Assembly: GCA_947167715.1 (NCBI GenBank)
Contig: CAMVJD010000007.1
Coordinates: forward strand, 12,881-76,880
Direction of reading: 5' to 3'
Source: an uncultured Eubacteriaceae bacterium
GTDB lineage: Bacteria; Bacillota; Clostridia; Lachnospirales; CAG-274
Length of the DNA: 64,000 bases
Position numbers and translations under genes: made by a program. Shown here in pieces: positions 12,670 to 18,526 of this stretch. The notes under the pieces are model-generated. The model worked only from the letters and a program-made list of their open reading frames with translations. It was not told the origin of the DNA and ran no database searches. Every line of letters begins with the position of its first letter. Position 1 is the stretch's first letter.

Positions 12670-14604
12670 ATGGAAAATATACCGATAAAGCTTGACGAGG
12701 ACAGCGAAAACAGCACGCCCGCCGCAGAAACAACGGATAACGCGGCCGAGCAGGCGGCGCCCGCTGCCGAAGCCTCCGTAATACAGCCCGCGCAAAAGGC
12801 CAAGGCCGACCCAAAGGCCGCATTGATAACTGTATTTATGGCCGTATTTGCACTTGTTTTGGGCTATGTACTGACCGGATTTTTATTTTTTTCAAACCAC
12901 TTTAACCCGGGCACCGTTATAAGCGGCGTAAACTGCGCAGGCCGCACAGTGGCGGATGTAAAGCAAAAAATGAGCGAAGCGGCGGTGGATTATACGCTGA
13001 CCGTAACGGACGAGGGCAAGACGGCGGCAACGCTTACCGCCGCGGACATTGGGCTTAAATACAATGTCACGGACAAGATAGACGGCGTTATGGCAGCCCA
13101 GAAGCCGCTTTTATGGGGCGCCGGCTTTTTTAAGAAAAACGATATAGAAATTGAAAACGCCTTTATCAGCGACCCCGCTATGGTAGAAGCGGCGGTAAAC
13201 GGGCTGGATATAGTTAAAAATATGCAGGACACTCCGCCCGTAAACGCCTCTGTTTATTATACGGGCAGCGAATACGCAATACAGGATGGCGCGCACGGCG
13301 GCAGGATAATCACCGAAAACCTTTGTAAGGCCGTTACCGAAGCAGCCGAAAACGGCAGGGACAGCATAGACCTTTTAGAGGCCGACTGCTACGAAATGCC
13401 CGAGTTTACCGCAGATTCCGAAAAGGTAAAGGCGGCCTGCGAGCAGGCAAACAAATATATCAGCCCCAAAATCACAATGAACATGGGCCCCGGCGCACAG
13501 CACACCATTGTGGATAAGGAGCTTATACACGACTGGCTGTTTGTGACCGACAACTATGATGTTTATTTTGACAGAAAAAAAGTTAAGGCCTGGGTGGCCG
13601 AGTTTGCAAAAACCTTTAACACCTTTGGCCAGACAAGACAGTTTTTAACGGCCTTTGGTACACGCACCACCGTTTCGGGCGGTGATTTTGGCTGGCTTAT
13701 GGATCAGGAGGCCGAGGTGCAGTCACTTGTAAACGTGATCAAGGCGGGACAGGACGTTGTACGCTACCCCGCTTACACCGTAATGGGCGTAGGCCATGGC
13801 CAGGACGATATAGGCCGCAGCTATGTCGAGGTCGATCTGACCAACCAGCATATTTATGTTTGGGTAGACGGCAAACGAGTGCTTGATGCGCCCTGTGTAA
13901 CGGGACTTCCGCCCAACAGGATAACACCGCCCGGCACATACCGCATAAAAAAGAAAATGAGCCCCGCAATACTTGTGGGCGACAATTACAGAACGCCCGT
14001 AAGCTACTGGATGCCGTTTAACCGCGGCATAGGCCTGCACGACGCAACGTGGCAAAGCTCGTTCGGCGGCAGAAGATACCTTACGCACGGCTCACACGGC
14101 TGCGTAAACCTTTCGTTAAGCACGGCAAAGCAGGTATACAGTTACGTTTATCCGGGTATGCCCGTTGTATGCTATCATATAAATCAATACGGCATAGGCA
14201 AAATGATGGTACTTCCCGATCCGTCAACAACAACTACGACCACAACCACCACTACTACGGAGGCCACGACGGAAGTTACCACCGCCGCAATTACAACAAA
14301 GGCGCAGCCGACAACAAAGTCGCAGCCCGCAACAAAAACACAGCCGGCAACAAAGGCACCACAGCCCGCAACAAAGGCACCACAGCCCGCAACAAAGGCA
14401 CCACAGCCGGCAACAAAGGCACCGCAGCCCGCAACACAGGCACCGCCGCCCGTAACACAGGCACCGCAGCCCGTAACGCAGGCACCGCCGAAAGTTGAGC
14501 CGCCGGCAGAGCCTACCACAAAACATATAGAAACGACCCCCGTTATTACCGAGCCGGTAGTAACAGAGGATGACGGAATAATACACGAAATAGTGGTAGA
14601 TTAA
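12670..14604 (+). CDS. L,D-transpeptidase (YkuD domain) with N-terminal TM anchor and C-terminal Thr/Pro/Lys-rich repeat tail
   Basis: The TM segment is LITVFMAVFALVLGYVLTGFLFF. The YkuD catalytic region is GLHDATWQS...GSHGCVNLS. The tail has T10 followed by ATKAPQP repeats. Confidence 0.85.
   Translation: MENIPIKLDEDSENSTPAAETTDNAAEQAAPAAEASVIQPAQKAKADPKAALITVFMAVFALVLGYVLTGFLFFSNHFNPGTVISGVNCAGRTVADVKQKMSEAAVDYTLTVTDEGKTAATLTAADIGLKYNVTDKIDGVMAAQKPLLWGAGFFKKNDIEIENAFISDPAMVEAAVNGLDIVKNMQDTPPVNASVYYTGSEYAIQDGAHGGRIITENLCKAVTEAAENGRDSIDLLEADCYEMPEFTADSEKVKAACEQANKYISPKITMNMGPGAQHTIVDKELIHDWLFVTDNYDVYFDRKKVKAWVAEFAKTFNTFGQTRQFLTAFGTRTTVSGGDFGWLMDQEAEVQSLVNVIKAGQDVVRYPAYTVMGVGHGQDDIGRSYVEVDLTNQHIYVWVDGKRVLDAPCVTGLPPNRITPPGTYRIKKKMSPAILVGDNYRTPVSYWMPFNRGIGLHDATWQSSFGGRRYLTHGSHGCVNLSLSTAKQVYSYVYPGMPVVCYHINQYGIGKMMVLPDPSTTTTTTTTTTTEATTEVTTAAITTKAQPTTKSQPATKTQPATKAPQPATKAPQPATKAPQPATKAPQPATQAPPPVTQAPQPVTQAPPKVEPPAEPTTKHIETTPVITEPVVTEDDGIIHEIVVD
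14293..14490 (+). repeat. In-frame 18/21-bp tandem repeats encoding (T/A)TK(A/S/T)(P)QP units
   Basis: GCAACAAAGGCACCACAGCCC is repeated four times nearly perfectly, flanked by degenerate 18- and 21-bp units. Confidence 0.85.
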
Positions 14605-17073: not shown

Positions 17074-17400
17074 TCAAACAAAGACCAGCTGCACAAGTGC
17101 CATATAGATCACCGTGCCAAGCCCTATGCTTAAAAGATTGTTCCTTTTCCAGACGTGAAGTACAACAACTATGACCCCCGCAATAAGCTTTGGCAAAACC
17201 GTATTTACCGCAAAGCCGCTGCCCAAAAGACAGTATACCACAAGTATGGCAATGACCGCGCTGGGAAGATATTTACCCACATACAAAACCGTTTTTGACG
17301 GCTCCTTTCGTCCGAAAAGCAAAAACGGAAAGGCGCGCGTAAAAAACGTGGCTATCGCGGATATTAAAATTATCATTACGGAATATTTAAAATCAACCAT
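17074..17400 (-). CDS. azlD: Branched-chain amino acid exporter small subunit
   Basis: A 108-aa, four-TM hydrophobic protein whose start overlaps the end of azlC by 8 nt. This is the typical AzlD size and context. Confidence 0.8.
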   Translation of the reverse strand: MVDFKYSVMIILISAIATFFTRAFPFLLFGRKEPSKTVLYVGKYLPSAVIAILVVYCLLGSGFAVNTVLPKLIAGVIVVVLHVWKRNNLLSIGLGTVIYMALVQLVFV

Positions 17401-18111: not shown

Positions 18112-18140
18112 TTGACTTGTTGCAAAATAAATGATATAAT
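18112..18140 (+). promoter_or_regulatory. Near-consensus sigma-A promoter with no downstream ORF
   Basis: TTGACT (18112-18117), 17-nt spacer, TATAAT (18135-18140). Confidence 0.55.
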
Positions 18141-18146
18141 CAAATT

Positions 18147-18243
18147 ACAAAAAAGGAACATCGTATCCCGATAGGACGGTGTACCCCTTAGATGTAAGTT
18201 ATAAAATAACCGCGATCATTGGGGAATGGGCGGTTATTTTTTT
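18147..18243 (+). ncRNA. Candidate ~95-nt sRNA (possible type I antitoxin), ending at a shared terminator
   Basis: It is bounded by the promoter above and by hairpin AAATAACCGC...GCGGTTATTT (18204-18239) plus a T-run. It has no RBS or ORF. Its 3-prime end overlaps the stop codon of the convergent 33-aa ORF. Confidence 0.4.
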
Positions 18244-18335
18244 GTGTCTTTTTCGTGTCTTCCAAATCTGTAGCCAAGTTCAAAAAACGCAAGACAAAGG
18301 CTTGCAAGACCCATCAGCTGTTCGATAGTAAGCAT
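18234..18335 (-). CDS. 33-aa hydrophobic peptide: candidate type I toxin (or an azlCD leader peptide)
   Basis: Not in the ORF track. GGGGG lies 8 nt upstream of the ATG at 18335. Product MLTIEQLMGLASLCLAFFELGYRFGRHEKDTKK. The TAA stop at 18236-18234 lies inside the terminator stem. Confidence 0.45.
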   Translation of the reverse strand: MLTIEQLMGLASLCLAFFELGYRFGRHEKDTKK

Positions 18336-18526
18336 AAAACACACCCCCTTTACACCGGAATTATATGTAATCGGTTCCAAGTAAAGGGGTCACCGTCCCG
18401 GCAGTCCCTGCATATTATACGCTTGGGCTGTTTAACCGTTTTTTCGTTCAACAATGTTCCCGCGCTTATATTAGCACAAAATCCCTCAAAAGTCCATAAA
18501 AATATTATTTCCGTTTTATTACAGTT

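Follow-up and report, generated by a model that had tools for sequence, protein, structure and literature searches.

What is the role of a 33-codon open reading frame (ORF) that faces a strong promoter of the opposite strand across a hairpin holding its own stop codon? The question is raised by a locus in 64,000 nucleotides (nt) of DNA from an uncultured Eubacteriaceae bacterium (GenBank assembly GCA_947167715.1, contig CAMVJD010000007.1, positions 12,881 to 76,880; this whole stretch is termed the window, and positions are counted from its first letter). An earlier note, made from the letters of the window, had offered two answers: a type I toxin-antitoxin pair arranged like TxpA/RatA or BsrG/SR4 of Bacillus subtilis, in which a small antisense RNA (sRNA) would silence a hydrophobic peptide, or a leader peptide controlling the azlCD genes that follow on the same strand. 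Comparison of the locus with its relatives showed conservation of a whole cassette, purifying selection on its coding sequence, conserved promoters and strand-specific RNA structure signatures, foremost in the distribution of G.U pairs, which back the first answer. The cassette (18524-18103) is probably a self-contained, horizontally mobile type I toxin-antitoxin-like unit whose family was previously undescribed. Below, "toxin" denotes the 33-aa peptide as a putative toxin, and numbers beginning with L are our handles for loci.

A conserved cassette around a small reading frame

Reading of the window and of its ORF list confirmed the peptide gene and the GGGGG placed 8 nt upstream of its start codon. 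The window was aligned with contigs of close peptide homologues, two genome loci and one metagenome locus (eight loci, alignment A2). DNA conservation in this alignment extended over about 420 nt, window 18524-18103, beginning ~190 nt 5' of the peptide ATG and stopping just past the -35 element of the plus-strand promoter, and the loci were unrelated beyond these limits. All features listed in the earlier note were present where it had placed them, but the unit is longer than it had drawn, reaching 18524 and including an mRNA promoter and a 126-nt 5' untranslated region. The conserved blocks comprise both promoters, an A/T-rich block, the probable mRNA 5' end (GGGAACAU), CCGGGACGGTG, the invariant CCGGGACGGUG, the Shine-Dalgarno (SD) region, the ORF, the hairpin, ACACCGTCCTATC and the sRNA 5' end; 3' of the hairpin, the invariant ACACCGUCCUAUC is followed by the complement of the sRNA 5' end and by the sRNA promoter. 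The A/T-rich block may be an UP element, and the flanks further 5' of it differ among loci. The succession of promoter, leader, ORF, hairpin and convergent promoter is kept in 16 lineages, which is more than chance would give.

Features of the cassette in the window and of its junction with azlC, ordered along the minus strand.
Feature	Position	Strand	Description
A/T-rich block CTGTAATAAAACGGAAATAATATTTTTA	18497..18524	-	5' of the toxin promoter, at the left cassette edge; conserved in seven A2 loci
Toxin mRNA promoter	18468..18496	-	-35 TGGACT (18496-18491), 17-nt spacer, extended -10 TGcTAATAT (18476-18468; -10 hexamer 18473-18468)
Element a_m GGGAACAUUGU	18451..18461	-	Toxin mRNA 5' end, near copy of the sRNA 5' end; 5' half of the predicted long-range helix
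Element a'_m GGGACGGUG and anti-Shine-Dalgarno ACCCCUUUAC	18381..18399	-	a'_m at 18399-18391, then anti-Shine-Dalgarno at 18390-18381; CCGGGACGGTG invariant in A2
Loop motif GAUUACAUA	18364..18372	-	Between anti-Shine-Dalgarno and Shine-Dalgarno; kept across the family
Shine-Dalgarno region GUAAAGGGGG	18344..18353	-	GGGGG at 18348-18344; predicted to be sequestered by the anti-Shine-Dalgarno
33-aa peptide gene MLTIEQLMGLASLCLAFFELGYRFGRHEKDTKK	18234..18335	-	ATG 18335-18333, stop TAA 18236-18234; predicted single helix with basic tail; putative toxin
Shared hairpin AAAAUAACCGC...GCGGUUAUUUU	18203..18240	.	Perfect 11-nt arms at 18203-18213 and 18230-18240; inner CAUU/AAUG helix
Predicted antisense sRNA, putative antitoxin	18147..18247	+	About 99 nt (to ~18245), ends inferred from promoter and terminator
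Predicted 3' extension of the toxin-sense transcript	18147..18202	-	Complement of the sRNA 5' domain; would pair with a_m and a'_m
sRNA promoter TTGACT-17-TGaTATAAT	18112..18140	+	11/12 consensus matches, TG extended -10
Junction between cassette and azlC start codon	18092..18111	-	20 nt, outside the cassette; marks a deletion of ~210 nt relative to L004; azlC at 18091-17393

The plus-strand promoter bore out its earlier description as near-consensus and was the sole strong promoter-like site in 2.5 kb. Its pattern, TTGAC(T/A)-17-TAxxAT, recurs in all 16 lineages, with a TGn extended -10 in all but L002; in nine scanned loci it is found 88-122 nt beyond the stop codon. The toxin promoter keeps its geometry (17-nt spacer, TGn extended -10) in 14 of the 16 lineages, being truncated in L003 and unclear in L032, and stands 140-160 nt 5' of the ATG in the lineages scanned for promoters. 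By its sequence it would be weak to moderate, and the position of its -10 element predicts a transcript start near G18461, giving the 126-nt leader of the window and leaders of 90-129 nt across the lineages with an assigned promoter.

Judged by its substitutions, the ORF is under purifying selection and translated. Over the first 26 codons, the proportion of synonymous differences (pS) of 0.8-0.9, with synonymous sites near saturation, compares with a proportion of non-synonymous differences (pN) of 0.12-0.34 (pN/pS about 0.15-0.4, and 0.14-0.63 at its widest), and the variable columns at codon positions 1, 2 and 3 number 17, 15 and 25 of 26 codons. AlphaFold places residues 4-32 in a helix, with a predicted local distance difference test score (pLDDT) of ~90 over the first 20 residues; the mean hydropathy of the family is 1.3-1.6, and its tails are richer in Lys and Arg (K+R 3.9) than in Asp and Glu (D+E 1.5). 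The predicted product is thus a membrane peptide of one helix, toxin-like in shape and ending in a basic tail.

The 33-aa peptide being too short a query, homologues were sought with a 48-aa upstream-extended ORF and with an alignment headed by a 40-aa member. Profile searches returned 28 clusters at 50% identity among 1.8 billion representatives and at least 737 clusters at 90% identity (E ≤ 0.01) in a set of 5.8 billion proteins. The members, mostly of 32-40 aa, share the consensus MLTI[TE][DE]LIAVISLC[VA][TA]FYSLGYxxGK followed by a basic tail; all clusters were named "hypothetical" or "uncharacterised", the organisms given including Anaerostipes hadrus and Eubacterium sp. Scans of genome and metagenome collections with the peptide pattern yielded close relatives only, and one hit, L008, was discarded as a false positive in which the pattern lay inside a GC-rich ORF. 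Pfam and NCBIfam, searched with the window peptide and 27 family members at E ≤ 1, gave weak transmembrane noise and neither a toxin family nor any other, PHROGs gave no match for the peptide family, and the family profile matched no solved type I toxin in the PDB. The kinship with TxpA and BsrG that the earlier note had suggested is therefore unsupported as homology by these searches with family hidden Markov models (HMMs) and profiles. No description of the family was found in the literature on the peptide strings and the topic. We consider it likely from these comparisons that the putative toxins form a new family, with a new RNA layout among type I toxin-antitoxin systems.

At least 14 other lineages, Anaerostipes hadrus, [Eubacterium] eligens ATCC 27750 and a faecal phage contig among them, have the whole cassette, placed beside unrelated genes. 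Its neighbours comprise an HTH gene (convergent and 3' of the cassette in L001), an acetyltransferase, GGDEF/EAL, MNT/HEPN-type nucleotidyltransferase pairs, type I restriction-modification (R-M) hsdS shufflons, Mob_Pre, MATE transporters and phage genes. One family member alone occurs in >8,000 assembly blocks. Copies that carry no annotation were recovered by tblastn, from the megaplasmid of [Eubacterium] eligens ATCC 27750 as well as from the faecal phage contig. The first of these (L034, NC_012780.1 160258-160365) lies between two MATE transporter genes and has no entry in the PLSDB gene table; in Anaerostipes hadrus the gene (L010, FP929061.1 ~1,648,491-1,648,592) is named just "Uncharacterised protein". 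The sites are often variable or defence regions (L013-L018, L019-L021, L025, L027, L032, L028/L029, L033), with copies beside MNT/HEPN-like pairs (nucleotidyltransferase/nucleotidyltransferase-substrate-binding) and Fic, within hsdS/integrase shufflons of type I R-M systems, adjoining Mob_Pre together with a DNA methylase, close to a Gp15-like phage gene, and on the faecal phage contig (MT835527.1).

Opposite strand asymmetries in the hairpin and the predicted fold-back helix

As the earlier note had seen, the hairpin contains the peptide stop codon; on the minus strand the arm concerned is the 5' one, and the hairpin also overlaps the last Lys codons. Its sequence, AACCGCC...GCGGUU at the end of the ORF, recurs across the 16 lineages, and its stem is conserved with UA to CG covariation in both directions. 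The sRNA-sense form of the hairpin exceeds the toxin-sense form in stability in all 16 lineages (mean -18.0 vs -14.2 kcal/mol), and the G.U pairs of the hairpin, 42 vs 4, carry a signature specific to the sRNA sense. Such a bias, together with the stem covariation, is expected of a functional sRNA terminator; the hairpin accordingly appears from its sequence to be mainly the intrinsic terminator of the sRNA and, for the toxin strand, a weaker terminator or a pause. Coding is dual at this spot (18234-18250 in the window). The U-tract of the sRNA terminator is complementary to the AAA AAA that encodes the terminal Lys residues; the KNNRP motif recurrent in longer members is the 5' arm of the hairpin (AAC AAC CGC CC) read in frame; and in some members a shifted stop codon lets the ORF run into unrelated tails (40-79 aa).

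The predicted sRNA begins with a 5' stem-loop that holds a_s (18155-18164) and a'_s (18174-18189) and continues through an A/U-rich linker to the terminator hairpin and the U-tract. It has neither a ribosome-binding site nor an ORF and ends in a hairpin with a T-run, as the earlier note had stated, with a size now put at ~99 nt instead of ~95 nt. Predicted lengths are 89-105 nt across the lineages and 136 nt in L002, in which a ~34-nt insertion with its own hairpin sits inside the 5' stem-loop (L002 1215-1250, sRNA sense), the flanking a and a' blocks being unchanged; this suggests that the loop tolerates insertions, as does the mRNA copy (6-50 nt). Rfam gave nothing near gathering score for the window region and nine related loci. 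RNAalifold applied to all sRNAs recovered the terminator alone, MAFFT having misaligned two types of 5' stem-loop. Perfect complementarity between mRNA and sRNA amounts to at least 46 nt if the mRNA ends at the hairpin (46-54 nt or more across lineages) and to the whole sRNA if the mRNA reads through (~95 nt).

Which of these two holds is indicated by the 5' ends of the RNAs. The sRNA 5' stem-loop (a_s, a'_s) is a near copy of the mRNA blocks a_m and a'_m; in DNA terms the copies are an inverted repeat around the ORF. They vary by lineage (GGAACAUCGU...GGACGGUGUACC vs GGUGCUACC...GACGGUUAGCC, plus other forms) and are matched within each locus, the observed identity being reached in 0/20000 permutations of cognate pairs. 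Of 34 differences between copies, which share ancestry and represent an estimated ~12 independent events, 28 have U or G in the mRNA vs C or A in the sRNA, as G.U pairing in the toxin sense would allow; a single one is the transition in the other direction, and five are transversions. A bias of 28 vs 1 is expected if the mRNA 5' end pairs with toxin-sense RNA 3' of the hairpin. The corresponding fold-back helix has 17-33 bp, of which 22 pairs entered a covariation count: 97.8% of the helix cells are paired, a fraction inflated by construction since the blocks had been chosen for mRNA/sRNA similarity, and 12 of the 22 pairs have changed on both sides, values that 0/500 shuffles reach. The parts of this evidence that are independent of block choice are the G.U asymmetry and the cognate-tracking test, and only these. 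The toxin sense gives the more stable fold-back duplex for 12 of 13 lineages (-37.8 vs -30.3 kcal/mol), and this duplex figures in the minimum-free-energy fold of 12 of 14 read-through transcripts; in the fold of the read-through transcript, the CCGGGACGGTG at a'_m pairs with 18174-18189. These signatures indicate a functional toxin-sense RNA that would extend ~95 nt past the hairpin, and the earlier claim that both RNAs end there needs revision. The opposite asymmetries, of the hairpin towards the sRNA sense and of the helix towards the toxin sense, likewise indicate that both RNAs would be functional.

The leader of the toxin mRNA holds further structure. Its C-rich anti-SD pairs with the SD in the minimum-free-energy fold, and positions -14 to +3 have a mean unpaired probability of 0.11 in the window transcript and of 0.09-0.53 across lineages, so that the SD is mostly paired in the predicted ensembles. 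Between the two, the loop motif reads GAUUACAUA, GUUUACAUA or GAGUACAUA in most lineages and is more diverged in L028 and L002. GAUUACAUA occurs once in the window, and the motif GAUUACAUA(GA) is kept while the flanking leader sequence diverges completely; no consistent complementary partner for it was found in the sRNA or in the hairpin loop, and it may serve as a standby or nuclease site or make a tertiary contact. Pairing of the sRNA with the initiation region, in the manner of SprA1AS or par, was considered and is not relied on: the candidate patches are of 5-12 nt and involve different parts of the sRNA from one lineage to the next (in the window, the linker GUAAGUUAUAAAA vs UUUUAUGCUUAC; in group B, GAACACC vs GGUGUUC), and no such pairing conserved across lineages was found.

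The fold-back can be dispensed with if both transcripts end at the hairpin and the shared 5' sequences bind a common factor, such as a nuclease or a chaperone, or make hairpin-hairpin contacts. The hairpin is indeed flanked by A/U runs on both sides, each copy is able to fold its own 5' stem-loop, and several of the U/C differences would be wobble-compatible inside such local hairpins too. A shared protein site, however, would not co-vary among lineages and yet match within each locus, as the permutation test found, and the hairpin is the weaker one on the toxin strand in every lineage. Several lineages also have a poor U-tract on the toxin strand (on average 2.5 vs 4.7 U among the 8 nt after the hairpin), although these counts are confounded, A and U runs pairing with each other, and the strand difference in stability was used in their place. 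We regard termination of both RNAs at the hairpin as unlikely.

In addition to the block choice and the shared ancestry mentioned above, several results weigh against a fold-back-controlled toxin. No conserved 3' end or terminator of the read-through transcript was found. Among the terminated, read-through and sRNA-masked forms, the predicted accessibility of the SD shows no consistent change, and the regulatory role of the fold-back is therefore not established. Finally, M1 L2 T3, C14, G21 Y22 and G25 are near invariant, a conservation unusually strong for a type I toxin, which could point to a specific, non-toxic membrane function.

The last point leads to an explanation in which the peptide is a conserved small membrane protein with a non-toxic task, for instance within a membrane complex as a subunit or as its regulator, and in which a cis-antisense RNA would adjust its expression. 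The residues MLT, SLC and LGY..G are strongly conserved across 130 of 136 retrieved sequences, purifying selection is what such a protein would show, and many of the loci are stable chromosomal sites present in thousands of assemblies. On the other hand, the cassette has no conserved partner gene, its neighbours differing in every lineage. Defence or mobile islands are frequent locations of it, and copies also occur on a phage contig and beside Mob_Pre. An antisense promoter much stronger than that of the gene, an occluded SD and a 5'-3' fold-back are moreover typical of products that are kept off. A non-toxic role for the peptide thus seems to us improbable.

The inverted repeat could alternatively act as DNA, as the terminal repeats of a miniature element or the recombination sites of an invertible switch. 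Its arms of ~10 and 13 nt, 200-290 bp apart, are lineage-variable yet matched within each locus, and some loci adjoin integrase or hsdS shufflons. Against this, an insertion of 6-50 nt splits one arm, conservation of the cassette with both promoters reaches ~60 nt beyond each arm, and there is neither a consistently linked recombinase nor, among the fetched loci, any variant in inverted orientation; the greater stability of the duplex in the toxin sense argues the same way. A miniature inverted-repeat transposable element or an invertible switch was rejected on the G.U compatibility of the arm differences on one strand, unexpected for a DNA site, and a DNA-level function is very improbable.

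Proposed control and comparison with known type I systems

For a type I toxin-antitoxin cassette, the following course of events can be proposed. The weak-to-moderate minus-strand promoter would give an mRNA in which the anti-SD of the 126-nt leader occludes GGGGG. The near-consensus and much stronger convergent promoter would give the ~99-nt sRNA, the putative antitoxin, which would pair with the 3' part of the toxin RNA; the duplex would be subject to RNase III-type decay, or the mRNA would stay untranslated, or both, as in BsrG/SR4 and TxpA/RatA. A toxin-sense transcript passing the hairpin would pair its 3' extension with its own 5' end, in the manner of the hok fold-back inhibitory element (fbi) or of aapA1, and constitute a stable, inert mRNA pool, in which anti-SD and fold-back together would keep the toxin mRNA stable and untranslated. 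The sRNA 5' stem-loop, being a copy of the mRNA 5' end, would compete with the latter for the same 3' extension. For the cassette itself we infer transcription, toxicity, the nuclease involved and the order of events.

This last step can be carried further, if only tentatively: the antitoxin sRNA may mimic the 5' end of the toxin mRNA, both competing for the read-through 3' extension in a three-partner RNA switch. With the mRNA 5' end on the 3' extension, the transcript would be a locked, stable and silent reservoir; with the sRNA on the 3' extension, it would form a long duplex, to be cleaved and cleared; and once the short-lived sRNA was lost, 3' trimming to the hairpin would leave a translatable mRNA. 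To our knowledge, control logic of this three-partner, mimic-based kind is undescribed for type I systems.

Several of these elements are familiar. SD/anti-SD pairing, 5' and 3' stem-loops and a 5'-3' long-distance interaction are hallmarks of type I toxin mRNAs (PMC8594479), and the mechanism of a 3'-overlapping antitoxin, combining duplex-triggered decay with a translational block, has been described for BsrG/SR4 (PMC8309996). With respect to the generic properties of type I systems, the cassette has a small membrane peptide (33 aa, one helix, basic tail, purifying selection) and, at the level of sequence, a gene for an antisense RNA of 60-200 nt, and SD sequestration and the 5'-3' interaction appear in its predicted folds. 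With BsrG/SR4 and TxpA/RatA the cassette shares convergent genes, a small hydrophobic peptide whose C-terminus is polar or cationic, an sRNA overlapping the toxin mRNA 3' end (here by at least 46-54 nt, as predicted) and an mRNA whose SD is structurally occluded, and the expected outcome, duplex-triggered decay and translational block, would be the same (PMC8309996). It differs from them in having no sequence relationship detectable by family HMM scans, in an overlap centred on one shared hairpin that contains the stop codon, and in an sRNA 5' domain that copies the mRNA 5' end, with a read-through 5'-3' fold-back indicated.

The par system (Fst / RNA I-RNA II) of pAD1, a plasmid from Enterococcus faecalis, encodes a 33-aa peptide, is transcribed convergently to a bidirectional terminator, and has a structured toxin-mRNA 5' region and repeats in the 5' parts of both RNAs. 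The cassette resembles it in the size of the peptide, in convergent transcription to a shared bidirectional terminator, in the structured mRNA 5' region and in the shared 5' repeats. The par repeats, however, are direct in DNA, so that the RNAs are complementary there, whereas those of the cassette are inverted and the RNA 5' ends alike, and it is the mRNA's own 3' extension that would be the complementary partner. Unlike Fst, the peptide lacks the APxxxGxxx motif and has no proline in its core (consensus LIAVISLC..FYSLGY); no match to the Fst/Ldr superfamily was found in Pfam or NCBIfam, nor to the solved Fst or LdrD chains in the PDB profile search.

The likeness to hok/sok (fbi) and aapA1/IsoA1 lies in the pairing of the mRNA 5' and 3' ends, expected to give a stable and translationally inert form, and in SD sequestration (PMC8594479). 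In the case of hok/sok fbi it is a functional analogy only, the peptides and RNAs being unrelated. The antisense RNAs of these two systems target the 5' leader, whereas the cassette sRNA is complementary to the 3' part of the mRNA including the fold-back partner, and the host phylum is different, the peptide family unrelated and no mok-like overlapping frame present. SprA1/SprA1AS of Staphylococcus aureus has, like the cassette, a 3'-end overlap and functional contacts possibly outside it (PMC8594479); unlike there, the complementarity between the sRNA 5' domain and the translation-initiation region is not consistent across lineages.

Closest in host are CD2517.1-RCd8 and CD0977.1-RCd11 of Clostridioides difficile, which are likewise clostridial, convergent and overlapping, with peptides that have a hydrophobic N-terminus and a Lys-rich tail, and are frequently located in mobile or defence regions (PMC6563280). 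Their peptides have 50-53 aa vs mostly 32-40 aa here, and the leader and fold-back layout is unreported for them. Homologues of the C. difficile type I toxins have been reported in C. difficile phages (PMC6563280). A tblastn search of the peptide against 50,697 phage records matched no C. difficile phage, its single weak match being the faecal phage contig, a true family member; by this indirect test via phage records, the two families are not detectably related. Searches in clostridia had found almost no type I systems outside C. difficile, according to a review (PMC6563280). Overall, the comparison suggests a 3'-overlapping, Firmicute-type arrangement to which a hok-like fold-back would be added, in a cassette that by sequence belongs to none of the families compared.

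Neighbouring genes and significance of the family

In the window the cassette is followed 3', on the minus strand, by AzlC and then AzlD. No promoter-like site was found between the cassette and azlC, whose ATG lies 20 nt from the sRNA -35 element, in accordance with what the earlier note had said of this gap. Having no promoter of their own, azlCD are probably transcribed here by read-through from the cassette, which is probably a local accident and not a function of the cassette. Among the 16 lineages, azlC lies 3' of the cassette solely in a near-identical group (window, L004 and L007). In L004, ~210 extra nt separate the two (L004 513-724), with a terminator-like hairpin (GGCTTACAGTGGAAAGCC and TTTTTATTT); the window and L007 are without this stretch, and the tight junction of the window is therefore a recent deletion.

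The proposal that the locus is an azlCD leader-peptide attenuator, in which translation of the small ORF, stopping within the 5' arm of the hairpin, would determine whether transcription reads on into azlC and azlD, could draw on the 20 nt of same-strand distance in the window, on a gap so devoid of promoter-like sites that transcription must come from upstream, most simply by toxin-sense read-through, and on the covariation data suggesting that such read-through occurs, but is hardly credible given that all other lineages (~13) carry the complete cassette by unrelated, often convergent genes, that L004 has a spacer with a terminator-like hairpin, and that the peptide has no run of regulatory codons (Leu/Ile/Val) and is conserved in its very sequence and not merely in its translation. 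The position of the cassette beside azlCD is incidental.

If azlCD are transcribed from the cassette, their expression, and perhaps that of the overlapping gene for a glycosyltransferase (17077-14795), would rely on read-through that starts at the toxin promoter and runs against a strong convergent one. The reading frames of azlC and azlD overlap by 8 nt (17393-17400) and those of azlD and the glycosyltransferase gene by 4 nt (17074-17077), which suggests that azlC, azlD and this gene, encoding a two-domain glycosyltransferase of 760 aa, are one operon, an unusual partnership. On the plus strand, at 12670-14604, a 644-aa ORF has a C-terminal low-complexity Thr/Pro/Ala/Lys/Gln tract with a run of 11 Thr followed by ATKAPQP-like repeats; judged by sequence motif only, the tract resembles a linker spanning the cell wall, carried by a protein whose middle region is L,D-transpeptidase-like.

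Anaerostipes hadrus and [Eubacterium] eligens ATCC 27750 are culturable, and experiments on the type I toxin-antitoxin-like cassette are thus feasible. Antisense RNA that copies the mRNA 5' end, together with a fold-back through a "terminator", offers a hypothesis for mutagenesis and a compact part for RNA engineering. The frequent location in defence and mobile islands makes a role in island stabilisation or phage defence testable. The genes have remained in an annotation blind spot, absent from the PLSDB gene table on the [Eubacterium] eligens megaplasmid and "hypothetical" everywhere else. Abundant in human-gut Lachnospiraceae, culturable type strains included, and carried also by Eubacterium spp. 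and rumen Clostridia, the family would be a major unannotated class of small genes of gut commensals.

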